64,000 nt of DNA from Escherichia coli (GCF_017348835.2 NZ_CP071375.1), one strand, 5' to 3'. Numbered from the stretch's first letter, positions 19,733-36,036 are shown. Notes: generated from the sequence alone by a model not told the origin. Made by a program: numbers and translations.

Positions 19733-20008
19733 ATGAAAGTAAACTTAATACTTTTTAGCTTATTTTTATTGGTCTCTATTATGGCATGCAATGTTTTTGC
19801 ATTTTCCATTTCTGGTGGTGGAAGTGAGAGGAGCTATAAAGAGACGGAAAAAACATCAGCGATGACGACAACTCACTCTACAAAAATTCAGCCATCACAG
19901 GCAATTTTGTTTAAGATGAGAGAAGATGCGCCACCATTAAACCTCACAGAAGAAACCACGCCCCCTTTTCCGACAAAGGCGAATTATCTTATTCATCCTG
20001 TGCGATAG
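19733..20008 (+). CDS. ypdI: Small predicted lipoprotein
   Basis: 91-aa ORF with signal peptide and lipobox-like ...SIMAC; divergent from yfdX. Confidence 0.8.
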   Translation: MKVNLILFSLFLLVSIMACNVFAFSISGGGSERSYKETEKTSAMTTTHSTKIQPSQAILFKMREDAPPLNLTEETTPPFPTKANYLIHPVR

Positions 20009-20084
20009 CGTCTGTCACCTGGCAGGTGAACAATCATGTCTGATGCTGATGTGAACACCTGCCCAAATGAGCCATCCTGACCCA

Positions 20085-20327
20085 CTATCGCCTGCCATAC
20101 CCCACCATAAAGCGAATCATCAAGCCACAAGCCGGGGCAAGAAACATAAATATCCCCGTCACCAGTTCATTACCGCCAGTTAACCACATGGTGAAGTAAT
20201 AAATGAGTGCAGCGAGGATCACCATGCCGAAGAAAGAAGAGACCGCCGATACCACGTTCAGTACCTGACCGATGTATCCGCTTACGCAGACAATACACAG
20301 GGCGAGAAACATCCATAAATAAATCAT
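20085..20327 (-). CDS. yfdY: Small inner-membrane protein (DUF2545)
   Basis: 80-aa ORF with two hydrophobic helices. Confidence 0.8.
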   Translation of the reverse strand: MIYLWMFLALCIVCVSGYIGQVLNVVSAVSSFFGMVILAALIYYFTMWLTGGNELVTGIFMFLAPACGLMIRFMVGYGRR

Positions 20328-20679
20328 AGCTCAACCTCCTGCCGCGCTAAAAAACCTGTAACTTCAGTCACTTTAATAGTAAGACAATCCTTACCCTCTG
20401 GCAATTTTTGCTAAGCATCAATGAAAACAGCATGTTAAATGCAACACTATTGCATGCGGAAAATTTTTTACTTTGCACGATTAATAATCAGTAGCTGAAA
20501 GCAGTCAGCCAGTGATAAAGTAGAGCCACCGCATTCATGCTCCTCGTGGTTATGTCCTGACTAGTCTTTACACTCTTTACAGGAACCATTGTCGTACATG
20601 ATGGCCCAACCAATTGAGTGTACCGCTGTCGACATGGAATCTTCTGCGATACAACAATTCGTATCTACAGAAGGTAACT

Positions 20680-21600
20680 ATGTTTCCACAATGCAAATTT
20701 TCCCGCGAGTTTCTGCATCCTCGCTACTGGCTCACATGGTTTGGGCTTGGTGTACTCTGGCTTTGGGTACAGCTTCCTTATCCTGTTCTCTGCTTTCTCG
20801 GCACGCGTATTGGCGCAATGGCGCGACCATTCCTGAAACGGCGTGAATCTATCGCCCGTAAAAACCTGGAACTTTGCTTCCCGCAGCATTCTGCGGAAGA
20901 ACGCGAGAAGATGATTGCCGAAAACTTTCGTTCACTCGGCATGGCGCTGGTAGAAACCGGCATGGCGTGGTTCTGGCCCGACAGTCGCGTACGTAAATGG
21001 TTTGATGTTGAAGGGCTGGATAACCTTAAACGCGCACAAATGCAAAATCGCGGCGTAATGGTTGTCGGCGTCCATTTTATGTCGCTGGAACTGGGCGGCC
21101 GCGTGATGGGACTTTGTCAGCCAATGATGGCTACCTATCGTCCACATAATAATCAGCTGATGGAATGGGTGCAGACCCGTGGTCGCATGCGCTCTAACAA
21201 AGCGATGATCGGCAGAAATAATCTGCGCGGCATTGTCAGTGCACTGAAGAAAGGTGAAGCGGTATGGTTTGCTCCCGATCAGGATTATGGTCGTAAAGGC
21301 AGCTCCTTCGCGCCGTTCTTTGCGGTAGAAAATGTCGCCACAACCAATGGCACCTATGTTCTCTCCCGTCTCTCTGGCGCAGCCATGTTGACCGTAACGA
21401 TGGTAAGAAAAGCGGATTACAGCGGATATCGTTTGTTCATCACCCCAGAGATGGAAGGCTACCCGACAGATGAAAATCAAGCCGCTGCCTATATGAACAA
21501 GATTATCGAGAAAGAGATCATGCGCGCACCGGAGCAGTACCTCTGGATCCACCGTCGCTTTAAAACGCGCCCGGTGGGAGAATCGTCGTTATACATTTAA
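20680..21600 (+). CDS. lpxP: Lipid A palmitoleoyl-ACP acyltransferase (cold-induced LpxL paralogue)
   Basis: ORF 20614-21600 trimmed to the internal ATG (MFPQCKFSREFLHPRYWLTWFG), 306 aa; lauroyl/myristoyl acyltransferase family. Confidence 0.9.
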   Translation: MFPQCKFSREFLHPRYWLTWFGLGVLWLWVQLPYPVLCFLGTRIGAMARPFLKRRESIARKNLELCFPQHSAEEREKMIAENFRSLGMALVETGMAWFWPDSRVRKWFDVEGLDNLKRAQMQNRGVMVVGVHFMSLELGGRVMGLCQPMMATYRPHNNQLMEWVQTRGRMRSNKAMIGRNNLRGIVSALKKGEAVWFAPDQDYGRKGSSFAPFFAVENVATTNGTYVLSRLSGAAMLTVTMVRKADYSGYRLFITPEMEGYPTDENQAAAYMNKIIEKEIMRAPEQYLWIHRRFKTRPVGESSLYI

Positions 21601-21955
21601 CAAACTGCTCTGACTCTTTACCTCCTCACATAAGCCATAATAACCTCATGGTTTTTATGGCTTTTTTCTTAAGGTTTTTTCCTTCGCTGAATATCTAATT
21701 ATTACCGTCAGAAATTAAACTGTCGCCGATATGAGACACCTGTAAGTTACTAAAAGTAAATAAGAAAATGCCTCTTGTCTCGTTTCAGTTTTAGGCGTAC
21801 ATTAGCGCCGTCTCGAGCAGTTTAGCTCAGAATTCTGGGGTGATGCCCACGGTAAAATACAGGACTTTTAAGGTCGTTTTGCCCGGTGTCAACTCACTGT
21901 ATCAGGTGTAATGAAGTCATTCAGGCGTAACAGCAATTACGCGGAGAGATGTAAA

Positions 21956-22027
21956 GTGAAATATTTCTTTATGGGCATTTCTTTTATGGTCATCGTTTGG
22001 GCCGGTACTTTTGCCCTGATGATCTAA
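21956..22027 (+). CDS. ypdK: Small membrane protein (23 aa), missed by the 60-aa ORF cutoff
   Basis: GTG start preceded by GGAGA at about 8 nt; encodes MKYFFMGISFMVIVWAGTFALMI, a single predicted TM helix; followed by a terminator hairpin. Confidence 0.7.
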   Translation: MKYFFMGISFMVIVWAGTFALMI

Positions 22028-22035
22028 AAGCAAAC

Positions 22036-22066
22036 TGTGCAATGAAAAACAGGAGCCATCAGGCTC
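22036..22066. terminator. Bidirectional intrinsic terminator between ypdK and alaC
   Basis: Hairpin AACAGGAGCC-atca-GGCTCCTGTT flanked by A-run and T-run. Confidence 0.65.
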
Positions 22067-22091
22067 CTGTTTGCATTTCTGAGGTCGGTGT

Positions 22092-23330
22092 TTATTCCGC
22101 GTTTTCGTGAATATGTTTGCTGCTGGCGGGTAGTAAACCGTCGGCACGGAACATCGCTTTAATCCCACGAATCGCCTGACGAATACGGTCGCGGTTTTCA
22201 ATCAGTGCAAAGCGCACATGCGTATCACCATAGTCGCCAAAGCCGATCCCCGGCGAGACACAAACCTTCGCTTCGTTAAGTAATTTCTTGGCAAACTCCA
22301 GCGAGCCCATGGCAGCGTAAGGTTCAGGGATTTTCGCCCAGACATACATCGAAGCCTTCGGCATTTCGACCATCCAGCCCGCTTCATGCAGCCCTTTAAC
22401 CAATACATCACGGCGGCGTTTGTACTGTTCGGCAATGTCGCGCACGCACTGTTGATCGCCCTCGAGTGCCGCAATCGCCGCCACCTGCAACGGCGTAAAG
22501 GTGCCGTAATCGTGATAGCTTTTAATACGTGCCAGGACGCTGACCAGCGTTTTGTTGCCAACCATAAAGCCGATACGCCAGCCCGCCATGTTGTAGCTTT
22601 TCGACAGCGTAAAGAACTCGACCGCCACATCGCATGCACCCGGCACCTGCATGATTGACGGCGCTTTCCAGCCATCGTAGACGATATCGGCATAGGCCAG
22701 GTCATGGACCACCAGCACATCGTAGCGTTTCGCCAGCGCCACAACCTTTTCGAAGAACTCCAGTTCCACGCATTGCGCGGTTGGGTTCGACGGGAAGCCG
22801 AGGATCATCATCTTCGGTTTCGGATAACTTTCACGAATGGCGCGCTCCAGTTCGTTGAAGAAATCGACACCTTCCACCAGCGGCACTGAGCGTACCTGAG
22901 CCCCGGCAATCACCGCGCCGTAAATATGAATGGGGTAACTTGGATTCGGCACCAGCACTGTGTCACCGTGATCCAGTGTCGCCAGCATCAGATGCGCCAG
23001 GCCCTCTTTCGAACCAATAGTGACGATGGCTTCTGATTCCGGGTCGATTTCAACGTCGTAGCGATCCTGATACCAGCGGGAAATGGCGCGACGTAGCCGC
23101 GGAATACCGCGTGAAGTGGAGTAACCATGCGTGTCCGGGCGCTGGGCCACAGTACATAATTTTTCGACGATATGCGGCGGAGTCGCACCGTCCGGGTTAC
23201 CCATACTGAAATCGATAATATCTTCGCCGCGCCGACGCGCAGCCATTTTCAGTTCAGCGGTAATGTTAAAAACATAGGGCGGGAGACGATCAATGCGCGT
23301 AAAGCGACGTTCAGGGCGAGTGTCAGCCAT
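22092..23330 (-). CDS. alaC: Glutamate-pyruvate aminotransferase (PLP-dependent, class I)
   Basis: 412-aa ORF with aminotransferase class I signature (...[12 protein letters not shown]...). Confidence 0.93.
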
Positions 23331-23706
23331 AATTTCCTCAGATTAACGTTAGCGCCCGGACCGTCCGAGCGACGCTGCCACGATGGTGGCTGTTTTGAAA
23401 ATAGCCTGATTAATTTCTGTCTGTCCAGCGTTTTAGAACATTTTTATTAATGACGTTAAATGAGGAACTCTGCTTTAAAAACAGGAAATTTATCTGCGCT
23501 AACAAGAAAATTACCACTCATTTTATTAACATAATAATTTCAATAAATTTACTAACCAGAAGTGCATTATCAAGAGATGCATTGCTAATACACCATTTAT
23601 CTATCAATCCCATTTTAAAATTGTGGTTTTTCCTCAAAAACGGCCTGCTGGTCATCAGCCTTCAGGTTACCTATCATAGAGGTTTAATCCTTATTCAGAG
23701 TCACCC

Positions 23707-25404
23707 GTGCACGAAATATTCAACATGCTGCTGGCGGTCTTCGATCGGGCAGCGTTAATGCTTATCTGCCTGTTCTTTCTCATCCGTATCCGCCTGTTTC
23801 GCGAACTGTTGCACAAGTCGGCACACTCACCGAAAGAGTTGCTCGCCGTTACCGCCATTTTCTCGCTGTTCGCCCTGTTCAGCACCTGGTCCGGCGTTCC
23901 CGTAGAAGGCTCGCTGGTGAACGTACGTATTATCGCGGTGATGTCCGGCGGGATTCTGTTTGGCCCGTGGGTGGGCATCATTACCGGCGTGATTGCGGGT
24001 ATTCATCGTTATTTAATTGATATCGGCGGCGTGACGGCGATCCCCTGCTTTATCACCAGCATTCTGGCTGGTTGTATATCGGGCTGGATCAACCTGAAAA
24101 TCCCCAAAGCACAGCGCTGGCGCGTCGGTATTCTCGGCGGCATGTTGTGTGAAACGTTGACCATGATTCTGGTGATTGTCTGGGCACCAACTACCGCGTT
24201 GGGGATCGATATCGTCTCTAAAATCGGGATTCCAATGATCCTCGGCAGCGTCTGTATCGGCTTTATTGTGCTTCTGGTGCAAAGCGTTGAGGGCGAAAAA
24301 GAGGCCAGCGCCGCGCGGCAGGCCAAGTTGGCGCTGGATATCGCCAACAAAACGCTACCTCTGTTTCGCCATGTCAATAGCGAGTCATTACGCAAAGTTT
24401 GTGAAATTATTCGCGATGACATTCACGCCGATGCGGTGGCGATTACCAATACCGATCATGTGCTGGCCTATGTTGGCGTGGGTGAACATAACTATCAGAA
24501 TGGCGATGACTTCATTAGCCCGACTACCCGTCAGGCGATGAATTACGGAAAAATCATCATTAAAAACAATGATGAAGCCCACCGCACACCAGAGATTCAT
24601 TCCATGCTGGTGATCCCATTGTGGGAGAAAGGCGTTGTGACCGGAACGCTGAAAATTTACTACTGCCACGCGCATCAGATAACCTCGTCATTACAGGAAA
24701 TGGCGGTTGGTCTGTCGCAAATCATCTCCACGCAACTGGAGGTTTCACGCGCCGAGCAGCTACGTGAAATGGCAAATAAGGCAGAGCTTCGCGCCCTGCA
24801 AAGCAAAATTAATCCCCATTTCCTGTTTAACGCTTTGAACGCTATTTCATCGTCGATCCGTCTGAATCCGGATACCGCTCGCCAGCTGATCTTTAATCTG
24901 TCGCGTTATCTGCGCTATAACATTGAATTAAAAGACGATGAGCAAATCGATATCAAAAAAGAGCTGTATCAAATTAAAGACTATATTGCCATTGAGCAGG
25001 CCCGCTTTGGCGACAAGCTGACGGTTATCTATGATATTGATGAAGAGGTGAATTGCTGCATTCCCAGCCTGCTGATCCAGCCGTTGGTGGAGAATGCCAT
25101 TGTCCACGGTATCCAGCCTTGCAAAGGTAAAGGCGTTGTCACCATCAGCGTTGCAGAGTGCGGCAATCGGGTACGCATTGCGGTGCGGGATACCGGGCAC
25201 GGCATCGATCCAAAGGTGATTGAGCGGGTCGAAGCGAATGAAATGCCGGGCAATAAAATTGGCCTGCTGAATGTTCATCATCGCGTGAAGTTATTGTATG
25301 GCGAGGGGCTGCATATCCGCCGCCTGGAACCAGGAACGGAAATTGCGTTTTACATTCCTAACCAACGCACCCCAGTCGCCTCACAGGCTACGTTATTGCT
25401 TTGA
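23707..25404 (+). CDS. ypdA: LytS-type sensor histidine kinase (pyruvate-responsive two-component sensor)
   Basis: 565-aa ORF with a 5TM-LytS N-terminal domain, GAF-like region and His-kinase/HATPase C-terminus. Confidence 0.92.
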
Positions 25405-25418
25405 GCCGGAGTGATATT

Positions 25419-26153
25419 GTGAAAGTCATCATTGTTGAAGACGAATTCCTGGCACAACAGGAACTGAGCTGGCTAATTAAAGAGCACAGCCAGATGGAGA
25501 TTGTCGGCACCTTTGACGACGGTCTGGACGTGTTGAAGTTTTTGCAGCATAACCGCGTCGACGCCATTTTTCTGGATATCAATATTCCGTCGCTGGATGG
25601 TGTGTTGCTGGCGCAAAACATCAGCCAGTTCGCCCATAAACCGTTTATTGTGTTCATCACCGCGTGGAAAGAACATGCGGTAGAAGCGTTTGAACTTGAG
25701 GCGTTTGACTACATTCTCAAACCGTATCAGGAGTCTCGCATTACCGGGATGCTGCAAAAACTGGAAGCGGCCTGGCAGCAACAGCAGACCAGCAGCACGC
25801 CTGCCGCGACGGTAACGCGTGAGAATGACACCATTAATCTGGTGAAAGATGAGCGAATAATCGTCACGCCAATTAACGATATCTATTACGCCGAAGCGCA
25901 CGAGAAAATGACCTTTGTCTATACGCGGCGTGAATCCTACGTAATGCCGATGAACATTACCGAATTTTGCAGCAAACTGCCGCCGTCGCATTTTTTCCGC
26001 TGCCATCGCTCATTTTGTGTCAATCTGAACAAAATCCGCGAAATCGAACCGTGGTTTAATAACACCTATATTCTGCGGCTGAAAGATCTGGATTTTGAAG
26101 TGCCAGTCAGCCGCAGCAAAGTAAAAGAATTTCGCCAGTTAATGCATCTTTAA
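25419..26153 (+). CDS. ypdB: LytTR-family response regulator
   Basis: ORF 25401-26153 (TTG in the track) trimmed to the GTG giving MKVIIVEDEF, with GGAG 8 nt upstream, 244 aa; receiver plus LytTR DNA-binding domain. Confidence 0.9.
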   Translation: MKVIIVEDEFLAQQELSWLIKEHSQMEIVGTFDDGLDVLKFLQHNRVDAIFLDINIPSLDGVLLAQNISQFAHKPFIVFITAWKEHAVEAFELEAFDYILKPYQESRITGMLQKLEAAWQQQQTSSTPAATVTRENDTINLVKDERIIVTPINDIYYAEAHEKMTFVYTRRESYVMPMNITEFCSKLPPSHFFRCHRSFCVNLNKIREIEPWFNNTYILRLKDLDFEVPVSRSKVKEFRQLMHL

Positions 26154-26165
26154 TCGGGAACTTTC

Positions 26166-27023
26166 ATGAAAGCACCAGGCTTGCCCGCCGATCAACAATT
26201 TTTCGCCGATCTGTTCAGCGGCCTGGTGCTTAACCCGCAACTACTGGGGCGCGTCTGTTTTGCCAGCCAGCCTGCCTCGTTGCCGGTGGGCAGTTTATGT
26301 ATTGATTTTCCCCGTCTGGATATCGTGCTGCGCGGCGAATACGGCAATCTGCTGGAAGCAAAGCAGCAACGTTTGGTGGAAGGAGAAATGCTGTTTATTC
26401 CGGCGCGCGCGGCTAATTTACCGGTCAACAACAAACCGGTGATGCTGTTAAGCCTGGTGTTCGCTCCGACCTGGCTTGGGTTATCGTTTTACGATAGCCG
26501 CACCACGTCGTTGTTGCATCCTGCTCGCCAGATCCAGCTTCCCAGCCTGCAACGCGGTGAAGGTGAAGCGATGCTTACCGCCCTCACCCATCTTAGCCGT
26601 TCGCCGCTGGAGCAAAATATCATTCAGCCGCTGGTGTTAAGTTTGCTGCATCTTTGCCGTAACGTGGTGAATATGCCGCCGGGCAATTCACAGCCGCGCG
26701 GCGATTTTCTCTATCACAGCATTTGTAACTGGGTTCAGGATAATTATGCCCAGCCGCTCACCCGCGAGAGCGTGGCGCAGTTTTTTAATATCACGCCCAA
26801 TCATCTGTCAAAACTGTTTGCTCAGCATGGAACGATGCGTTTTATCGAGTATGTGCGTTGGGTGCGAATGGCGAAGGCGAGGATGATTTTGCAGAAATAT
26901 CATCTGTCAATTCATGAAGTGGCACAGCGTTGCGGTTTTCCGGATAGCGACTATTTTTGTCGCGTTTTCCGGCGTCAGTTTGGTCTGACGCCGGGAGAGT
27001 ACAGCGCCCGTTTTCAGGGCTAA
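26166..27023 (+). CDS. ypdC: AraC-family transcriptional regulator
   Basis: 285-aa ORF with a C-terminal AraC-type HTH. Confidence 0.9.
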   Translation: MKAPGLPADQQFFADLFSGLVLNPQLLGRVCFASQPASLPVGSLCIDFPRLDIVLRGEYGNLLEAKQQRLVEGEMLFIPARAANLPVNNKPVMLLSLVFAPTWLGLSFYDSRTTSLLHPARQIQLPSLQRGEGEAMLTALTHLSRSPLEQNIIQPLVLSLLHLCRNVVNMPPGNSQPRGDFLYHSICNWVQDNYAQPLTRESVAQFFNITPNHLSKLFAQHGTMRFIEYVRWVRMAKARMILQKYHLSIHEVAQRCGFPDSDYFCRVFRRQFGLTPGEYSARFQG

Positions 27024-27025
27024 CG

Positions 27026-29521
27026 TCAGAAGGTTAATTCTGTTTCCAGCAGCGTCAGGATACTTTGTGCATCTTGCGCGGCAAACAACGACTGGCGGAA
27101 GTTTTTATTCACCAGTTTACGCGCCAGCTGCGAGAAGACTTTCACATGATTCATCCCTTCGTTAGCGCCCAGCGTCAGCATGATCACCAGTTCGACTTCG
27201 CCCATTTCTGACTGCCAGTCAACCGGTTTCACCAGCCGGGCAATGCTGATACTGGAATGACGGATCCACTGCGATTTGGTGTGCGGGATCGCCACGCCAA
27301 AACCAACGCCAGTGGTGACAATCTCTTCCCGCTGCCAGACATCCTCTTCCAGCTCGAACGGATGTTCAGTGCGCCCGTTAACGCCGAGGTTACCGCACAG
27401 GAACTGGATCGCCTGCTCTTTATTGCTAAAGGCCTGATCAACGAAGATATTCTCCAGCGCCAGCAGCGGGCGAACGTCTTCTTCCGGCGTAAAGGCGGTG
27501 AGTAACGCTTCAATTTCCTGCGCGCTGCGACATTCACACGCCTGACGTGCCAGTTCCCGACACGCCTCGCTATCCAGTTGACGAAGCTGGCTTTTCACCG
27601 CCGGAATGCGCGGGCTACTCATACTCAGCTCATCCAGGCCCAGCCCAAGCAGTAGCGGCAGGTAACGACTTTCGCCTCCCAGTTCACCGCAAATGCCTAC
27701 CCATTTGCCCCGCTGATGCGCAGTGGTAACTATTTGCTGCAACATGCGCAGGAACGATGGCGTAATCGGGTTATATAGCGGCGATACGCGCGGGTTATTA
27801 CGATCGACCGCATAAAGATACTGGGTCATATCGTTGGAGCCGATACTGAAGAAATCGACCTCATCGCAGAAGTGATCGATGATGTAGCACACCGACGGCA
27901 CTTCCACCATGATACCCAGCGTAATCGTCTCTGCATGACGCAGGCCATCGCGCTTAAGCTCAACGATCGCTTTTTGGATCTCGCCCTTCACCCATAAGAT
28001 CTGATCGAGGCTGTGGACCATCGGGATCATCAACTGGGCGTTGCCGAAACTGGCGGCGCGCAAAATGGCCCGCAGTTGAGTGCGGAACAGGCCAGCAAAT
28101 TCCGGGTAAATACGTACCGCGCGATAGCCGAGGAACGGGTTCTCTTCCTGGGGAATATTCAGATAAGGAATGCTTTTATCGCCTCCGATGTCCATTGTGC
28201 GGAAGATAATCGGCTTATCGCCCGCTGCCAGTAGCACCTGCTGGTAGGCTTCAAATTGCTCCTGCTCGTCCGGCGCGCTGTCGCGATCCATATAGAGCAT
28301 TTCGGTACGGAACAGCCCGACGCCTTCCGCGCCGTTGGCAAACGCGCCAGGCGCTTCCAGAGCGGTGCCAATATTCGCCGCGATATCAATACGCTTGTTA
28401 TCACGGGAATAAGCCAGCTGCGCGGCAGCCTGCGCCTGTTGTTTTTGGCGTTTATCCGCCAGCGTCTGCGCGACCTGATAATAACCGCTCACCGCGTCAT
28501 TCGGGTTAATCGCCAGCACGCCGCACTGGGCGTCAAGCACTGCAGGTTGCCCGGCATAACGGGCAATCGCATCCAGCGGCAGGCCGCTCAGTACCGGGAT
28601 CGCCGAGGCGCGGGCCAGAATCAGGGTATGCGAGGTGCGCCCGGTTTTCTCCAGAATCATGCCCGCAAGATTTTTCAAATCAAGGCTCAAAAACTGGCTT
28701 GGGGTTAAATCTTCAGCCACCAGAATGGTCGGTTTTTCAAGCACCAGATTGTTGCGCGGCTTCAGTTCCGGCCAGGTGATATGCAGCAACTGTTCGCTGA
28801 TATCGCGAATGTCGCTAACCCGCTCGCGCAGATAATCGCTGGCAGAAGCAGATAGTTTGGCGCAAACCTGCTCCATATTGCTGATGATCGCCGCCCCCAG
28901 CCCCTGATGCTGTTCTGTCATCAGGCGACGGATATTGCCCGCGAACTCATCATCCTGAATCAGCGACAAATGGGCGCTGAGGATAGTTTTGCTTTCGCCG
29001 TCACGCTCACGCAATTGCTGGTTCAGTTGCTCGGCAAGCGTTGCCAGGCTGTGCTCCAGCCGGGTGGAGTCTTGCGCACTGGCGGGGATTGCCCGATAAC
29101 TGTCGAGGCTGTCGCTTTGTAACAGGGTCAGCGTACCCACGCCGACGCCGCTTGCCAGCACATTGCCGTACAGTAAATCCGGGTTAAGGCGGCTTAATGA
29201 ACGCGGCAGCGGATGCGCCGTCAGTTCTGCCTGCGTTGGCTGAACGCTGTCGCTGTCAATAAAGCACACCTGGATGTACTCTTCCAGCACGCGCCGCGCC
29301 TGCTCTTCATCGCTGCCGCTAATGTTCAGGCTGCAACTGTCATTAAATAAGGTGCCGGTGCCAATCAGCGCCAGCGAGCTTTTGGCATCGGCCTTTGCGT
29401 TCTGGCGATGGTTGATGAAGGTGATTTCGCTTTGCCACTGGCTGCACTGTTCTTTAAGTTCCCACGCCGGACGGGCATGAAGACCGTTAGGCAAAGGACA
29501 GAGAAATTGAATCGTTAGCAT
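27026..29521 (-). CDS. fryA: PTS multiphosphoryl transfer protein (HPr-like, Enzyme I-like and EIIA-Fru-like domains)
   Basis: 831-aa ORF with HPr-like N-terminus, PEP-utilising enzyme core and a C-terminal EIIA domain. Confidence 0.92.
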   Translation of the reverse strand: MLTIQFLCPLPNGLHARPAWELKEQCSQWQSEITFINHRQNAKADAKSSLALIGTGTLFNDSCSLNISGSDEEQARRVLEEYIQVCFIDSDSVQPTQAELTAHPLPRSLSRLNPDLLYGNVLASGVGVGTLTLLQSDSLDSYRAIPASAQDSTRLEHSLATLAEQLNQQLRERDGESKTILSAHLSLIQDDEFAGNIRRLMTEQHQGLGAAIISNMEQVCAKLSASASDYLRERVSDIRDISEQLLHITWPELKPRNNLVLEKPTILVAEDLTPSQFLSLDLKNLAGMILEKTGRTSHTLILARASAIPVLSGLPLDAIARYAGQPAVLDAQCGVLAINPNDAVSGYYQVAQTLADKRQKQQAQAAAQLAYSRDNKRIDIAANIGTALEAPGAFANGAEGVGLFRTEMLYMDRDSAPDEQEQFEAYQQVLLAAGDKPIIFRTMDIGGDKSIPYLNIPQEENPFLGYRAVRIYPEFAGLFRTQLRAILRAASFGNAQLMIPMVHSLDQILWVKGEIQKAIVELKRDGLRHAETITLGIMVEVPSVCYIIDHFCDEVDFFSIGSNDMTQYLYAVDRNNPRVSPLYNPITPSFLRMLQQIVTTAHQRGKWVGICGELGGESRYLPLLLGLGLDELSMSSPRIPAVKSQLRQLDSEACRELARQACECRSAQEIEALLTAFTPEEDVRPLLALENIFVDQAFSNKEQAIQFLCGNLGVNGRTEHPFELEEDVWQREEIVTTGVGFGVAIPHTKSQWIRHSSISIARLVKPVDWQSEMGEVELVIMLTLGANEGMNHVKVFSQLARKLVNKNFRQSLFAAQDAQSILTLLETELTF

Positions 29522-29545
29522 AACCGCTCCGGGTTAATCAGGAGA

Positions 29546-30583
29546 TCATCTGAAATCCGTCAGTTGAACAACCGTCTCACGCGTAAGACGTTGAATCAGG
29601 GCAGATAAAAGTTGCTGCATCTGCAAAATGTCGCGGCAATCGGCAATCGATGCGGCGCAATGTCCATGGCGGGTTGCTGGCCCCATCACCACTGTGGGCA
29701 CGCCGGTGCCGGTTAAGTGCACCGCCCCGCCGTCCGTGCCGCCGTTGCTGAACATATCTGCCTGCAACGGCACGCCAATTTCTGCCGCCACGGTTTCGAC
29801 CCAGGCGGTAAGTTTTGGCGGCGCAATCAGCGACTTGTCGCTTAACACCAGCATCGGGCCGTTACCAATCTGGCGATGGTTAGCCGCGCCATAATCAAAG
29901 TTTTTCGCCCAGCAGGCGGTATCAAGCACAATGGCGACGTCCGGCGACACCGCGCGGGTGGCAGTTTGCCCGCCGCGTAATCCCACCTCTTCGCTGGAAC
30001 TTGCCACCAGCCACACTTCCGCAGGCAGTTCGGCGTCGTGCAGCTCACATAGTAACGTCACCAGCAGATAGCAACCAAGGCGGTCATCAAAGGCTTTCCC
30101 CATCACTCGCTGGTGGGGGAGAACCTGAAAAGTGGTATCGAACGTGACGCGATCGCCTGGACGAATTCCCGCCTGCATCACTTCGTCATACGAGCGCGCG
30201 CCAATATCCACGCGCATGGCGCTGACGTCATTCCCCTGCCGGTCGCCGTCAAGCAGGCCTGGAATTTTGCACTCTTCACGGGTGGTGATGCGCACCGGCT
30301 GCAGCTGGCGGGCAGCCATGCGCACGTTGCCAACCGGCAGCACATCAATTGCGCCTTCGCGGGAGATACTGCGCACCATAAATCCAACTTCGTCCATATG
30401 CGCACAGATCATCACTTTCGGACCTGTCGATTCATTGAGGCGGATCAGCACCGATCCCAGCCCATCAAATCGCACTTCTTTTTGCAGGCGATCCGCTTCT
30501 TCCAGCAGGATCTGCCGCACTTCCTGTTCCGAGGAGGCGATCGCATCTGCCTCGCTCAACGCTTTCAATAGCGATAAATCCAT
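29546..30583 (-). CDS. ypdE: M42-family aminopeptidase
   Basis: 345-aa ORF of the FrvX/M42 peptidase family. Confidence 0.9.
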
Positions 30584-31668
30584 TATGCCTCTCCCGTGAG
30601 CAACACTGTTTTCGGCATGGCGTAGAGCACTTCTGCGCCTTGCGGGGTGACCAGCACAACATCCTCGATGCGCACGCCCCCTTGCCCTGGCAAATAAATC
30701 CCCGGCTCCACGGTCAGTAACATGCCTGGCTGTAGCGTCGTGGTGTCCCGCGGTGAAAAGCGCGGATCTTCGTGTACTTCAATGCCGATAGCATGACCGG
30801 TGTTATGACCGAAATAGTCGCCATAACCGGCTTCTGTAATGACCCGGCGCGCGGCGTCGTCAACCTGCTGGCAGCGCACGCCGGGGCGAATTGCAGAGAT
30901 TGCTGCGAGCTGTGCCTGCAAAACAATCTGATAGACGTTAAACAGCGGATGAGATTCGGCGCTCACCCCTTCGCCATTCACCAGCAAGGTGCGCGTCATA
31001 TCAGAGCAGTAGCCCTGATACAGCGCACCGAAATCGAGAGTGACAAACTCGCCCGCTGCAACAATCTTGTCGCTGGCTTTGCCGTGCGGCAGCGCCCCAC
31101 GCCAGCCACTGGCGACAATGGTGTCAAAAGAGGCTTTTTCCGCGCCTTGCTGACGCATAAACCACTCCAGTTCAGCGGCTATCTCGCGCTCGCTCATCCC
31201 CGCCTGAATAAAGCGGCGAATATGCTCTGCACCGCGATCGGCAATCCCACAGGCAAGGCGGATTTTCTCCACCTCCTCTGGCGTTTTGATTTGCCGCAGC
31301 ACATCCGGCGTGGCGCTAACCAGTTTCGCATTGAGTTCAGACTGCCAGCGGTGCGCGGTTTCCCAACTCACCTGCTGGCCTTCAAAACCGAGCGTTTGCA
31401 ACTGCTCATCGGCAATGATTTGCCTGGCGATGGTTGTAAGCGTGTGCGTCGCGTCAAGCAAATGCAGCTGGTAACCTTGCGTGCGGGCTTCTACATCCGC
31501 GTAATAGCGCGAGTCCACCAGAATGTGCGCACTTTCACGGCTAATCAGCACATAGCCTGATCCGGTGGAGATCCCCAGATGCGGCTGTTTGTTCTGCCGT
31601 GAGGAGAGAAGCACCGCATCCAGTTGTTGCGCCTTAAGCCAGTCACGCAGCGAAGCGAGTAATGTCAT
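30583..31668 (-). CDS. ypdF: Xaa-Pro aminopeptidase (M24B)
   Basis: 361-aa ORF with M24 metal-ligand pattern; stop/start overlap with ypdE. Confidence 0.9.
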
Positions 31669-31682
31669 CTGGATTTTCCTTC

Positions 31683-32930
31683 TTACAGGCTATCGATTAA
31701 CAATTTGCCTTTACGGAACATCATCAGACGCAGGAACACCACCATCAGCGCAGTAATGACTGCCCCCAGCGCGATCCCCGCCATGTAGACGCCGAGGTTA
31801 GTGACCAGCGGCCATGCCCAGATAGCGGATTCCGGGAACCATTGCACTGCGCCCAGCCAGACAGCGGCGGTTGAGCCGACAATCGCGCCGACCATATACG
31901 ACGGAATGGCGGTGATGGGGCTTTCCAGCGCAAACGGAATCGCACCCTCACTAATCCCCATAAACGCCAGGAACATGGCGGTCTTACCCTGCGGATAAAG
32001 TTGAGCGTTGAACAGGCGTTTGCCGGTTAAACGACGGTCGATAATGGTCGCCAGCCCCAGACCAATCGGCGGAATAACGATTGCGATAGAACGTGCGGTG
32101 ACCGGTAATACGTGGTCAGTGGTAAAGCTGAAGGCAACGAAACCTGCGGCTTTGTTGATCGGGCCACCAAGGTCGATTGCTGTCGCCGCGGCGATCCCCA
32201 TCGCATACATTAGCGCGCCCTTCTCACCTGCGGCAGTCAGCACGGTACGGATACCACCGTTGATCCAGCCGCCAAAGGGGGTGATCACGTAGTACATCGC
32301 CAGCATGACAAAAATGGCGGAAAGAATCGGGAGCAAAAATGTGGTTTTGAACGCTAACAGGAAATCCGGTAACTGGATTTTCTGGTTCATCCATTTCACA
32401 AGGTAACCGGCAACGATAGAAATAATCAGCGCACCAATGAAGGTGGACGGCACCGGCGAAGAGGTCGCCCATTGCATAGTGCTGGGATCGAAGTTCAGCA
32501 GTTGCGTCGGCTGGGTAGACATCAAGCCGCCGATAAAACCAGCCGGAAACGCCAGTTTGCCACCGATAGAGTTCGCCACAAAAGCAGCAAACATCGGAAT
32601 GGCAAAACCAAACAACACGCCGCCGAAGGACTGCGACAACCAGGCAAATTTCAGTAAGGAGAGGTCGAAACCGGAGAATTTCCCGCTATTAAGAGCATCC
32701 ATGATGCCGATATCAGCAGGAATTTTAAGCCAGCTATAAGCAATCAGCTGGCTGAAAGCGAGGATCACACCGCCCATAATTAAGGTCGGCACCATGCGTG
32801 AAATCCCTGACATCACATGCTGCGGGAGTTCACCCCAGAAGCTGCTTTTAGAGGCCTGCGGATTCTTAACTGCCGCTGCCGCACCGGATGCGCCAGGCAC
32901 AACGGTTGCACTGCGTTTTTTAATGGCCAT
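31683..32930 (-). CDS. fryC: PTS fructose-like EIIC permease
   Basis: 415-aa polytopic membrane ORF of the PTS EIIC fructose family. Confidence 0.92.
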
Positions 32931-32951
32931 AACAATTATCCCTGTCGAATA

Positions 32952-33278
32952 TTACTGTTGTTCAGAGGCAATCATCTCTTCGATTTCTTTGATGATGCCC
33001 GCAGCGTTTTTAATTGCGTCCTGCAAAGTGATTTCATAAACGTCGCGTGATTCGAAACGTTCGTTATCTTCCGGGGTAACTGCCACGGAGTGGATGATGA
33101 TGGTCGCTTCGGCGATATCCTGCGCCGTCAGGCGATTCTGGATACCGTCCGCGCCCTGGGTTTCAATTTTCACTTCATAACCGGCTTCTACCGCCGCTTC
33201 TTCCAGCGCCTGAGCGGCCATAAAAGTGTGAGCCAGGCCCATTGGGCAGGCACATAATGCAATCAGTTTCTTACTCAT
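32952..33278 (-). CDS. fryB: PTS fructose-like EIIB component
   Basis: ORF 32952-33329 trimmed to the internal ATG (MSKKLIALCACPMGLAHTFMAA), 108 aa; EIIB-Fru phosphocysteine motif CACPMG. Confidence 0.9.
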   Translation of the reverse strand: MSKKLIALCACPMGLAHTFMAAQALEEAAVEAGYEVKIETQGADGIQNRLTAQDIAEATIIIHSVAVTPEDNERFESRDVYEITLQDAIKNAAGIIKEIEEMIASEQQ

Positions 33279-33496
33279 CGTTAATTCCTCGTTCAGTGAT
33301 AGTTGACGAGTGAAATTATGAACGTGCAAAACAAATCGCCGTTACCAGACAAATAATGCATTTACTGGAGAATTAATCCCGCTGTACGGAAGTGTGACGC
33401 AGGTCGGCCTTGTGAGGGGACACAAAGAAAAATTGAATTAACTGTATGATTTAAAAGATTATCGGGAGAGTTACCTCCCGATATAACAGGAAGGAT

Positions 33497-34462
33497 TTAC
33501 AGAATGTGACCTAAGGTCTGGCGTAAATGTGCACCGGAACCGAGAAGACCCGGATTGTCATGGACGATGAGATACACCGGAATATCATGGACATATTCTT
33601 TAAAGCGCCCTTTATCTTCAAATGCGGCACGGAAACCAGAGGCTTTGAAGAACTCAAGGAAGCGCGGCACGATACCGCCCGCAATAAACACGCCCCCAAA
33701 TGTCCCGAGATTGAGCGCCAGATTGCCGCCAAAACGGCCCATAATGACGCAAAACAGCGACAACGCACGGCGGCAATCGGTGCAGCTGTCAGCCAGCGCG
33801 CGTTCGGTAATATCTTTTGGCTTGAGATTTTCTGGCAGGCGGTTGTCAGCTTTCACAATTGCGCGATACAAATTCACCAGCCCAGGGCCAGAAAGCACGC
33901 GTTCCGCCGAAACATGGCCAATTTCCGCACGCAATATTTCGAGGATAATGGCCTCTTCTTCACTATTCGGCGCAAAATCAACGTGACCGCCTTCGCCCGG
34001 CAAGCTTACCCAACGCTTATCGACATGGACCAGATGCGCAACCCCAAGCCCCGTTCCGGCACCGTAAACCGCAATAGGTTTACCTTCTACCGGTTCTGCG
34101 CCACCAAACTGAATCAGATGCTCTTTTTTCAGCATCGGAATCGCCATCGATACAGCGGTAAAATCGTTAATAATTTCCAGATGGCTAAAACCGAGATTCT
34201 TTTTCATTTCGGCAATTGAGAACGCCCAGGTATGGTTGGTCATTGCCACCCAGTCTCCGGTAATCGGGCAAGCGATGGCAATACAGCCGTCTTTCACCTC
34301 GACCTTATGTTCTTCAAGATAAACGCGAATGACCGCTTCGAGGCTGGGGTAATCAAGCCCTGAATAGGTCTTAGCCTGAGAGATTTCACCACTGGCAATA
34401 TCACACAGAGCAAGACGTGCGTTGGTGCCGCCCACATCACCGACTAATGCATACTTTGTCAT
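33497..34462 (-). CDS. glk: Glucokinase
   Basis: 321-aa ORF starting [20 protein letters not shown] (ROK-like ATP-binding motif). Confidence 0.95.
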
Positions 34463-34665
34463 TCTTCAACTGCTCCGCTAAAGTCAAAATAATTCTTTCT
34501 CACACTGTAAATACCTGGGGGCATAACAACAACGCCGGAAAGGCAGGCTCCCTGTAAATATCGATCTGGGTCACACAATTACTTTATCGTTTCAGCACCA
34601 ATTGCAGCGATGCCTTTTTGCAAGCTGGGCAAACTAAGTATCTGACCCCGCATAAGGAATAGAAC

Positions 34666-35922
34666 ATGCTCCATCCGCGAGCCAGAACCATGTTGTTATT
34701 ATCGCTCCCCGCCGTGGCAATTGGGATTGCGTCCAGTCTTATTCTGATTGTGGTGATGAAAATCGCCTCGGCATTACAGAATTTGCTCTGGCAACGACTG
34801 CCGGGAACTCTGGGGATAGCCCAGGATTCACCTCTCTGGATCATCGGTGTATTAACGTTAACGGGTATTGCAGTGGGGTTGGTTATCCGTTTCAGCCAGG
34901 GTCATGCCGGACCAGACCCCGCCTGTGAACCGCTGATCGGCGCACCGGTTCCGCCCTCTGCGCTACCAGGACTTATCGTAGCATTAATTCTCGGTCTTGC
35001 TGGCGGCGTCAGCCTGGGGCCGGAACATCCGATCATGACCGTCAATATCGCCCTTGCGGTTGCCATTGGCGCTCGTCTGTTACCGCGCGTCAACCGAATG
35101 GAGTGGACTATTTTAGCCTCTGCCGGAACCATCGGCGCGCTGTTTGGTACACCTGTTGCGGCGGCGTTGATATTTTCGCAAACCTTAAATGGCAGTAGTG
35201 AAGTTCCGCTATGGGATCGTCTTTTTGCGCCGTTAATGGCGGCAGCAGCTGGTGCACTTACTACCGGATTATTTTTCCATCCCCATTTTTCACTGCCCAT
35301 TGCGCATTACGGACAGATGGAAATGACCGATATTCTCAGCGGTGCAATTGTCGCGGCGATTGCCATCGCAGCAGGGATGGTCGCCGTATGGTGCTTACCA
35401 CGGTTGCACGCGATGATGCATCAAATGAAAAATCCGGTGCTCGTGCTGGGTATTGGCGGATTTATTCTCGGTATTCTGGGGGTTATTGGTGGACCAGTTT
35501 CGCTGTTTAAAGGACTGGATGAGATGCAGCAGATGGTGGCAAATCAGGCTTTCAGCACCAGCGATTACTTTTTACTGGCGGTGATTAAACTTACCGCCCT
35601 GGTCGTTGCTGCCGCCAGTGGCTTTCGCGGTGGACGAATTTTCCCGGCAGTGTTCGTCGGCGTGGCATTAGGGTTGATGCTGCATGAGCACGTCCCCGCC
35701 GTTCCAGCGGCAATAACCGTTTCCTGCGCTATTCTCGGCATCGTGCTGGTGGTAACACGCGATGGCTGGTTAAGTCTTTTTATGGCGGCAGTCGTTGTAC
35801 CCAATACCACATTGCTACCGCTGCTCTGTATCGTCATGCTTCCGGCATGGCTGTTATTAGCAGGTAAGCCGATGATGATGGTCAATCGTCCGAAGCAACA
35901 GCCACCCCACGATAACGTTTAA
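34666..35922 (+). CDS. yfeO: ClC-like ion channel family membrane protein
   Basis: 418-aa polytopic membrane ORF. Confidence 0.9.
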
Positions 35923-36036
35923 CAAAAAATGCTCTCCTTTATGATTTAAGAGTTATGGCGATGATACGGGGCTTTACCTCCCCGTAATATTGCGTTAACA
36001 GGCCGCTGACGGCTTCGATCGTGAAGGAGAATAACA

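Follow-up and report, generated by a model that had tools for sequence, protein, structure and literature searches.

The fry operon of Escherichia coli as a candidate catabolic module for a sugar-amino acid or sugar-peptide conjugate

Why should an operon for a sugar phosphotransferase system (PTS) carry in its middle the genes of two aminopeptidases? The question is raised by a locus at positions 27026-33278 of a 64,000-nucleotide stretch of Escherichia coli DNA (GCF_017348835.2, NZ_CP071375.1; the whole stretch is referred to as the window), where the minus strand encodes, in the order of transcription, fryB, fryC, ypdF, ypdE, and fryA. These five identities had been proposed in a sequence-only reading of the window, and profile searches, matches in the Protein Data Bank (PDB), and RefSeq annotation all agreed with them. 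The locus is the already annotated fryBC-ypdFE-fryA operon and is not novel as an object: the K-12 genes b2387-b2383 together with ypdC (b2382) occupy the same locus, their order, lengths, and products in RefSeq match ours, and nothing structural distinguishes the two apart from allele identity. The statement that it is known from K-12 but functionally unresolved also proved right, as the genes are annotated and structures have been solved, and the literature search gave no substrate. Here, we suggest that the operon and ypdC form a six-gene catabolic module for a PTS-imported conjugate of a sugar with an amino acid or a peptide, a model to which we give an even chance of being correct as a whole.

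The five genes were delimited by an open reading frame (ORF) scan and Pfam searches. fryA (27026-29521, minus strand) encodes an HPr-EI-EIIA fusion of the fructose/mannitol type with 831 amino acids (aa), in which the Pfam domains appear in the order HPr, three EI domains (N-terminal, mobile, and phosphoenolpyruvate (PEP)-binding), and EIIA_2. The protein scored 505.9 bits against TIGR01417 (cutoff 341.7) and 141.6 bits against TIGR00848 (cutoff 103.5), and contains the HPr and EI motifs GLHARPA (residues 13-19, with H15), GRTSHTLILAR, SIGSNDMTQY, and GICGELGG, as well as the C-terminal EIIA motif GVAIPH with the active-site histidine. fryB (32952-33278, minus strand; 108 aa) encodes a fructose-type EIIB, which matched PF02302 at 1.8e-19 and TIGR00829 with 92.2 bits (cutoff 76.85) and has the phospho-cysteine motif CACPMGLAHT, matching CPxGxAHT. 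fryC (31683-32930, minus strand; 415 aa) encodes a stand-alone EIIC. FryC matched PF02378 at 8.1e-14 with 51.8 bits (threshold 30.7), and its score against the fructose-specific model TIGR01427, 157.5 bits, was marginally below the cutoff of 157.55; judged by these profiles, FryC is a borderline, divergent member of the fructose family. Together, FryA, FryB, and FryC constitute a complete private phosphorelay in which every phospho-acceptor motif is intact.

Variants of E. coli FryC with 379-384 aa are found in the databases (e.g. P0072), which have an in-frame deletion of about 36 aa at residues 120-155 (window 32466-32573), and a few database entries are fusions of YpdF with FryC or of FryC with YpdE (P0081, P0082, and P0085). 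Recurrent inactivation of fryC was considered and rejected. The short alleles are rare, because the deleted segment is intact in 5417 of 5426 complete genomes.

The peptidase genes are located between fryC and fryA. ypdF (30583-31668, minus strand; 361 aa) encodes an M24B Xaa-Pro-type aminopeptidase with PF01321 (Creatinase_N) and PF00557 (M24), which scored 816.8 bits against the equivalog model NF007310 (cutoff 393) and matched PDB entry 5CNX, "Aminopeptidase YpdF", at 1.2e-235. ypdE (29546-30583, minus strand; 345 aa) encodes an M42 aminopeptidase, which matched PF05343 at 1.5e-84 with 284 bits, scored 677.9 bits against the equivalog model NF007421 (cutoff 412), and matched PDB entry 1YLO, the Shigella orthologue, at 1.9e-224. 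The alignments were read against the residues that we take to be the metal ligands and the catalytic glutamate of the reference enzymes (TET2 numbering; prolidase). In YpdF, the positions conserved with the prolidase of Pyrococcus furiosus were D212, D223, the histidine of HxxGH, the glutamate of EPG, and the glutamate of RIED; in YpdE, those aligned to the ligands of Pyrococcus horikoshii TET2 were H62, the aspartate of FDDR, both glutamates of SEEVG, a conserved aspartate, and the histidine of RhgH. The sequences thus show two predicted cytoplasmic metallo-aminopeptidases whose metal ligands are intact. According to PMC3511314, which cites Zheng 2005 and unpublished data, the activity of YpdE has been characterised and the enzyme is a dodecamer. 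A paper on a ypdF mutant and C. elegans gave no mechanism, and papers on the Xaa-Pro peptidase of C. difficile contained nothing relevant to YpdF.

The genes are tightly packed, as the sequence-only reading had described, and its coordinates, strand, and ypdE/ypdF overlap agreed exactly with the ORFs. The intergenic distances are 21 nt between fryB and fryC, 14 nt between fryC and ypdF, and 24 nt between ypdE and fryA, and the ATG of ypdE shares 1 nt with the stop codon of ypdF (TAATG). The overlap, the gene order, and the short gaps were kept in all 26 enterobacterial loci examined. Within the operon, promoter-like and terminator-like matches were at chance level (7 against 6.4 expected and 10 against 10.7 expected, respectively), and "fryBC ypdF ypdE fryA" appears as a single entry in a published table of operons, with weak induction in a Cpx data set. 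Because no gap exceeds 24 nt, one pair of genes overlaps, order and spacing are kept, internal signals are at chance level, and the operon table agrees, the evidence fits a single operon, as had been proposed. At its 5' end, a GAGGAA ribosome-binding site precedes the fryB ATG at 33278. A longer, TTG-started fryB frame extending to 33329 was rejected; it would run over the predicted, conserved -10 hexamer and lacks a ribosome-binding site. The 5' end of the operon looks toward glk, the stop codon of which is 218 nt from fryB, and a terminator-like hairpin after glk (33460-33483, minus strand; a 10-bp stem followed by a T-rich tail) lies in between. An Rfam scan of positions 20000-36000 gave no match and thus neither a leader nor a riboswitch.

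What the peptidases might do was approached through the relatives of FryC. At the 50%-identity cluster level, 54 clusters of relatives were obtained at E ≤ 1e-30; counted singly at this threshold, the clade of FryC and P0270 has more than 600 homologues. The closest non-enterobacterial EIICs are 52-57% identical to FryC and belong to a tight clade, the members of which are 69-84% identical to the Clostridium query; this FryC-like clade spans Clostridia, Negativicutes, Tissierellales, Fusobacteria, Streptococcus suis, and Rahnella. Two types of neighbourhood were observed. In the peptidase type, Clostridium sp. OS1-26 and Pelosinus UFO1 have a PepV-like M20 peptidase, the series PRD/Mga activator-EIIA-EIIB-EIIC-M24, and a PatB-family C-S lyase (TIGR04350, 350.7 bits; cutoff 340). 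Rahnella has LacI-M20-EIIB-EIIC-M24, and a metagenome contig (L086) has RidA, an alanine dehydrogenase (AlaDH)-like dehydrogenase, RpiR, IIABC, M24, M20, and an unclassified class I/II aminotransferase. In the second type, a PRD activator, EIIA, EIIB, and EIIC are followed by an alpha-mannosidase of glycoside hydrolase family 38 (GH38); this arrangement was found in S. suis, Pseudoleptotrichia goodfellowii, and one unassigned group with 406-aa EIICs that is abundant in ENA metagenome assemblies. Between the two types, the EIICs share 65-74% identity, and they interleave in a neighbour-joining tree. In the next outgroup, fused IIABC proteins 36-42% identical to FryC, with MngA as the best NCBIfam model, are followed by GH38 and glycerate kinase. 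Consequently, the slot right after EIIC is occupied either by a glycosidase or by an M24 peptidase that is accompanied by a second di-zinc peptidase. The pairing of a sugar PTS with peptidases, which had been called unusual, is not an oddity of K-12, as it recurs in Clostridia, Negativicutes, and Rahnella.

The PatB/MalY-family C-S lyase gene lies inside the PTS operon in both Clostridium (locus L031, 11064-12248) and Pelosinus (locus L096, 11367-12539). The malX-malY genes of E. coli are another pair of a PTS and a C-S lyase, for which we know of no natural substrate, and the pairing may be a wider theme. We rejected alaC as the counterpart of a clostridial aminotransferase: the clostridial enzyme is the PatB-type lyase, which is 21% identical to AlaC, and alaC adjoins the operon only in genomes with the block at the glk site.

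Since EIICs related to FryC precede either GH38 or M24 together with M20, YpdF and YpdE would act on the amino-acid part of the cargo; the comparison points to processing of a PTS-imported glyco-conjugate as their most likely role, the substrate class being deduced from these neighbours. The proposed sequence of events is as follows. Transcription would start at an activator-dependent promoter upstream of fryB, with YpdC and its ligand bound to direct repeats. FryC would then import a hexose-containing conjugate with an amino-acid or peptide moiety, which FryA and FryB would phosphorylate. In the cell, YpdF and YpdE would trim or release the amino-acid part, the job done in the sister operons by the GH38 alpha-mannosidase, and the resulting sugar phosphate would feed central metabolism. 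In the Firmicutes versions, the presence of the PatB lyase and RidA would be consistent with a last step in which a Ser- or Cys-linked sugar undergoes beta-elimination, giving pyruvate and ammonia.

The same gene content could be explained more simply if the PTS carried an ordinary fructose- or mannose-type sugar and the peptidases were co-regulated general scavengers, e.g. under carbon or nitrogen limitation, that never touch the cargo. YpdE and YpdF have been described as broad or Xaa-Pro aminopeptidases on plain peptides, peptidases are redundant in E. coli, no enzyme for a sugar-amino acid bond is encoded in the E. coli operon, and an in-frame deletion in fryA has its phenotype in lysogeny broth (LB), which is rich in peptides. 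However, an M24 gene directly behind the EIIC gene of this clade recurs in three phyla, where the regulators vary and the second peptidase is either M42 or M20, and the M24 gene takes the exact position of GH38 in sister systems with 65-74% identity. Moreover, the ypdF/ypdE overlap and spacing are maintained in each of the 26 loci, whereas in Firmicutes the housekeeping M24 genes that resemble ypdF have no link to a PTS. We therefore regard scavenging peptidases beside an ordinary sugar transporter as an unlikely explanation, though one that deserves to be taken seriously.

Another explanation is that the M24 and M42 proteins are amidohydrolases acting on the phosphate of an aminoacyl- or N-acyl-amino sugar, a sugar N-amide rather than a glycoside, so that a single amide cut releases the sugar phosphate. 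This would account for an E. coli operon that has no glycosidase and would close the main gap of the conjugate model. Both M24 and the MH clan (M20 and M42) include non-peptidase hydrolases, and the NCBIfam lists for YpdF and YpdE contain such models, namely ectoine hydrolase, DddP, an M42 hydrolase of the NAGGN system, and the DapE/ArgE deacylases. Nevertheless, the best models and the closest structures are those of genuine Xaa-Pro peptidases and TET aminopeptidases, peptidase activity in vitro has been reported, albeit at second hand, and the clostridial PatB lyase points to a beta-substituted Cys or Ser intermediate. An amidohydrolase function is thus quite improbable in our estimation.

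Returning to the conjugate model, we compared the locus with systems already described. In MngA/MngB, the E. coli PTS for 2-O-alpha-mannosyl-D-glycerate, mannosylglycerate is phosphorylated by the PTS and GH38 then yields mannose-6-phosphate and glycerate. Both systems have fructose-family EIIA, EIIB, and EIIC domains, with FryC as a borderline member, and in both a PTS that imports and phosphorylates a hexosyl conjugate, as proposed for fry, is directly followed by the gene of a cytoplasmic hydrolase. In contrast, FryC scored only 102 bits against the MngA model NF007293 (cutoff 763), the fry hydrolases are a pair of metallopeptidases and neither the ORFs nor Pfam revealed a GH38 in the fry locus, FryA has EI and HPr built in, and the fry regulator is of the AraC type rather than GntR/RpiR. 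Fry is hence not a member of the MngA/MngB-type systems, with which it has the operon logic in common. The GH38 operons of Firmicutes and Fusobacteria resemble fry in their stand-alone EIIC of about 400-415 aa (54-56% identical to FryC), the separate EIIB, and a hydrolase gene after EIIC; they differ in having GH38 instead of M24 and M42, a PRD/Mga-type activator instead of an AraC-type one, and a small EIIA that is a protein of its own, whereas that of fry is part of FryA. The clusters of Clostridium, Pelosinus, and Rahnella share with fry an EIIC of 52-54% identity, M24 after EIIC (the Clostridium M24 being 44% identical to YpdF), and a second di-zinc peptidase of the MH clan, but this second peptidase is a PepV-like M20 rather than M42, and the regulators are PRD, LacI, or RpiR. 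The PatB-family lyase of Clostridium and Pelosinus and the RidA of contig L086 have no counterpart in the E. coli operon. No characterisation of these clusters turned up in the literature searched. Finally, the E. coli operons frvABXR and sgcXBCQAER also combine an M42-family protein with PTS components, sgcX belonging to a PTS operon, and M42 proteins are widely annotated as "Frv operon protein FrvX"; unlike fry, the two have no M24 partner and have PTSs of different families or architectures and different regulators.

The distribution of the locus was surveyed by a YpdF scan with one genome per species, tblastn searches with ten E. coli proteins, and two context look-ups. Of 5426 complete E. 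coli genomes, 5415 contain the locus at ≥80% coverage under the same gene names, except that fryA is labelled ptsP. Wherever an enterobacterial locus had sufficient flanking sequence, all five genes were complete and in the same order; the hosts were Escherichia spp., Citrobacter, Kluyvera, Salmonella enterica subsp. arizonae and diarizonae, Superficieibacter, Enterobacter, Pluralibacter, a Serratia sp., and Pseudenterobacter. In Enterobacter, Superficieibacter, Pluralibacter, the Serratia sp., and Pseudenterobacter, the block occupies chromosomal sites unrelated to glk. An orthologue of ypdC follows fryA tail to tail in 24 of 27 loci, including genomes without ypdA/ypdB and sites away from glk. 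In the loci surveyed, ypdA and ypdB were confined to Escherichia and the Citrobacter freundii group, and Salmonella arizonae and diarizonae (L013 and L014) have the arrangement glk-fry-ypdC-alaC without ypdAB. Since ypdC travels with the fry operon, whereas ypdA and ypdB do not, the evolutionary unit is fryBC-ypdFE-fryA plus ypdC, which moves between genomes as one putative catabolic module and is retained across at least 10 genera and no fewer than 4 chromosomal contexts. With 0.54-0.58, the fry operon (window 27000-32000) exceeds its flanks (about 0.47-0.52) in G+C content, which, combined with this patchy distribution over several sites, fits a mobile module.

It follows that the "ypdABC" string of E. 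coli joins two unrelated units and that YpdA and YpdB are neighbours outside the fry system. The sequence-only reading had placed the operon immediately downstream of the regulators ypdA, ypdB, and ypdC. The genes are adjacent, but the operon is not transcriptionally downstream, since ypdA, ypdB, and ypdC (composite string at 23707-27023) are on the plus strand and point into fryA, with ypdC converging on it; only ypdC co-varies with the operon across genomes. YpdA/YpdB is described as a pyruvate-responsive system controlling yhjX. A comparative paper on YpdA/YpdB is silent on ypdC and fry.

Several observations concern individual alleles and junctions. The 6.7-kb segment at 26900-33600 is 100% identical to that of E. 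coli PE164; only 2 of the 5426 complete E. coli genomes, both from pigs, are ≥99% identical to the segment, the others being 95-99% identical, and so the window comes from an uncommon E. coli lineage or allele. In locus L006 (Escherichia sp. MOD1-EC7003, around 11086), the YpdE match is 81% against 96-99% for its neighbours, and the apparent ypdF/ypdE overlap is 83 nt; this anomaly may reflect a frameshift or a recombinant segment. The stop codons of ypdC (27023) and fryA (27026) face each other with 2 nt between them (27021-27028), and the distance is 0-4 nt in 16 of 24 loci. As this leaves no space for a terminator, each transcript must end within the opposite gene, so that the operon and its putative regulator could overlap in antisense or interfere with each other's transcription.

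For the promoter, 175 nt upstream of fryB were aligned from 19 loci, including 13 genus-level representatives, between most of which synonymous sites are saturated. The alignment showed conserved blocks with unconserved spacers between them, all of which are described here on the minus strand. A CRP-like site, GCCGA-N6-TCACA (33393-33408), has a perfect right half and a weak left half, GA-N6-TCACA being conserved with a major-base frequency of 0.79. It is followed by two 16-nt direct repeats, ATTAATTCTCCAGTAA and ATTATTTGTCTGGTAA, separated by ATGC (33342-33377), which form a candidate AraC-type (YpdC) operator; the major-base frequencies are 0.78 for repeat A, ATTAnTTnTCnnGTAA (33362-33377), and 0.86 for repeat B (33342-33357). 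The spacer between repeat B and the -10 element, 21 nt in E. coli, has a frequency of 0.50. The predicted fryB -10 element, CATAAT (33315-33320), has a frequency of 0.97, with 6 of 6 columns at ≥90%, and no match to a -35 element accompanies it. The 29-nt core repeat motif occurs as a single copy in the window and was absent from 100 shuffles.

When the start site was assumed to be about 7 nt past the -10 element, near 33308, the repeats would extend from about -34 to -69 and the CRP-like site would be centred at about -92. At the araBAD promoter, the AraC I1-I2 direct repeats overlap the -35 position and CRP binds near -93. The predicted fryB promoter is similar to it in having two direct repeats, a CRP-like site at about -92, a good -10 element, and no -35 element, but its start site is a prediction, and the repeat period is 20 nt instead of 21. 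These features suggest an araBAD-like, activator-dependent promoter, with which a plain sigma-70 scan would find nothing; indeed, such a scan detected no full promoter upstream of fryB. A search for the CRP consensus at ≤2 mismatches gave chance-level counts and missed the conserved half-site, because the site has 3 mismatches to the consensus. In genomic systematic evolution of ligands by exponential enrichment (SELEX), fryB was a new CRP target (PMC3105977).

ypdC (26166-27023, plus strand), convergent with fryA, encodes an AraC-family regulator with HTH_18 and HTH_AraC domains, which is listed as uncharacterised in the literature. Its AlphaFold2 (AF2) model, with a mean predicted local distance difference test (pLDDT) score of 82.5, has a beta-rich, cupin-like N-terminal domain and two helix-turn-helix motifs, and the top Foldseek matches were full-length Rns, CsvR, and ToxT and the regulatory domain of RhaR. 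The fold search confirmed the AraC family and gave no pointer to the ligand. From its co-occurrence with the operon, we infer that YpdC is a candidate dedicated regulator of fry, and it may bind the repeats at 33342-33377. In Kluyvera ascorbata, Citrobacter sp. MGH106, and C. amalonaticus (L011, L016, and L017), the repeats and the operon are present without ypdC after fryA; in L016, a 1016-aa ORF takes its place. In these genomes, either the regulator may be encoded elsewhere or another protein may use the repeats.

Selection was estimated from the pairwise ratio of nonsynonymous to synonymous substitution rates (dN/dS) against orthologues of two other Escherichia species, Citrobacter, Salmonella diarizonae, Enterobacter, and Pseudenterobacter. 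The ratio was 0.007-0.21 for the five operon genes and 0.03-0.25 for ypdC, and within Escherichia and against Citrobacter it was comparable to that of glk, alaC, and ypdA. The strongest constraint in the block was on fryB and fryC, with dN/dS of 0.007-0.047 (the range of fryC itself) and 92-96% protein identity to Citrobacter/Salmonella. All six genes are under purifying selection, and the operon is therefore not decaying. ypdF (30583-31668) is the fastest-evolving partner: its protein is 74-78% identical to that of Citrobacter, whereas FryA, FryB, FryC, and YpdE reach 88-96%, and its dN/dS is 0.09-0.14 against 0.007-0.06 for the other operon genes. It is under purifying selection nonetheless.

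These values bear on the view that the operon is a silent evolutionary relic in E. coli that is heading for decay. Tradition has called it cryptic, its inducer is not known, a chromatin immunoprecipitation-exonuclease (ChIP-exo) study found no YpdC peak, the scan gave no standard sigma-70 promoter, and rare alleles have the 36-aa in-frame FryC deletion or fused ORFs. However, the locus is present in 5415 and the fryC segment in 5417 of the 5426 genomes, dN/dS is far below 1 for every gene, the catalytic and phospho-acceptor residues are all intact, the promoter footprint is conserved, and deletion of ypdE causes a fitness defect in vivo: in uropathogenic E. coli (UPEC) UTI89, a ypdE deletion strain was outcompeted in the mouse bladder with a competitive index of 0.30. 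A relic is largely refuted by the selection data and appears extremely improbable. The word "cryptic" in the sequence-only reading does not imply that the operon is dead, since purifying selection acts on all genes and mutant phenotypes have been reported.

A second mutant phenotype concerns fryA: a 48-bp in-frame deletion, which appeared when a BL21 derivative was kept in LB for a long time, leads to better growth on this medium. This deletion affects the EI part of FryA and alters fitness in a medium in which no fry substrate is known, and could mean that the Fry proteins serve chiefly as a regulatory phosphorelay of the kind of PTS-Ntr or DhaM, in which FryA senses PEP/pyruvate and controls other targets, while FryC does not function as a transporter in E. 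coli. FryA, with EI, HPr, and EIIA in one self-contained protein, duplicates the general PTS, and the neighbours YpdA and YpdB are described as sensing pyruvate. Against this, no gene of the block is under stronger constraint than fryC and fryB, the unit appears to be built like a catabolic operon with an inducible promoter, and ypdA and ypdB do not co-occur with the operon. A mainly regulatory role is consequently very improbable.

The catabolic module for a sugar-amino acid or sugar-peptide conjugate thus remains our preferred reading, and the following points weigh against it. The fry operon of E. coli encodes neither a glycosidase nor a lyase, and hence the freeing of the sugar from an O- or S-linked amino acid is unexplained, which is the main gap. 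YpdE and YpdF reportedly act on ordinary peptides in vitro, a result attributed to Zheng et al. in 2005, and could be general peptidases. In the literature search on fry, ypdE, and ypdF, which was swamped by authors named Fry, neither a substrate nor a report of transport was found. Among the Firmicutes loci retrieved with YpdF, 54 of 55 were not linked to a PTS, and similarity to YpdF alone is therefore no marker of the system. The sample of close-clade contexts beyond the Enterobacteriaceae was small (4 of the peptidase type and 3 of the GH38 type), and the neighbour-joining tree in which the two types are interleaved carries no support values. With respect to regulation, the published ChIP-exo study found zero YpdC peaks under the conditions used, and 3 genomes have the repeats without an adjacent ypdC.

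In a more specific and more doubtful form of this model, which we advance only tentatively as possible and probably not correct, fry would be the E. coli member of a cross-phylum PTS family that imports a glycosyl-amino acid or glycopeptide, a class of cargo not known for any PTS, with a metallopeptidase pair, M24 plus M42 or M20 and joined in Firmicutes by a PatB-type beta-lyase and RidA, in place of the GH38 of the sister systems. As parts of the same tentative proposal, the candidate substrate would be a hexosyl, possibly alpha-mannosyl, conjugate of Ser, Thr, or Cys from Pro-rich glycoproteins, and YpdC would sense this substrate and control the operon from the araBAD-like promoter at 33315-33408.

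The fry operon is nearly universal in E. coli, is under selection, and was connected with colonisation of the bladder by one UPEC screen. The comparison supplies for it a candidate regulator, YpdC, a 36-bp candidate operator, and a narrowed substrate class that is related to alpha-mannoside systems. If the glyco-amino acid reading is true, it would extend the known cargo of the PTS and would explain why all three M42 "peptidases" of E. coli sit in PTS operons.

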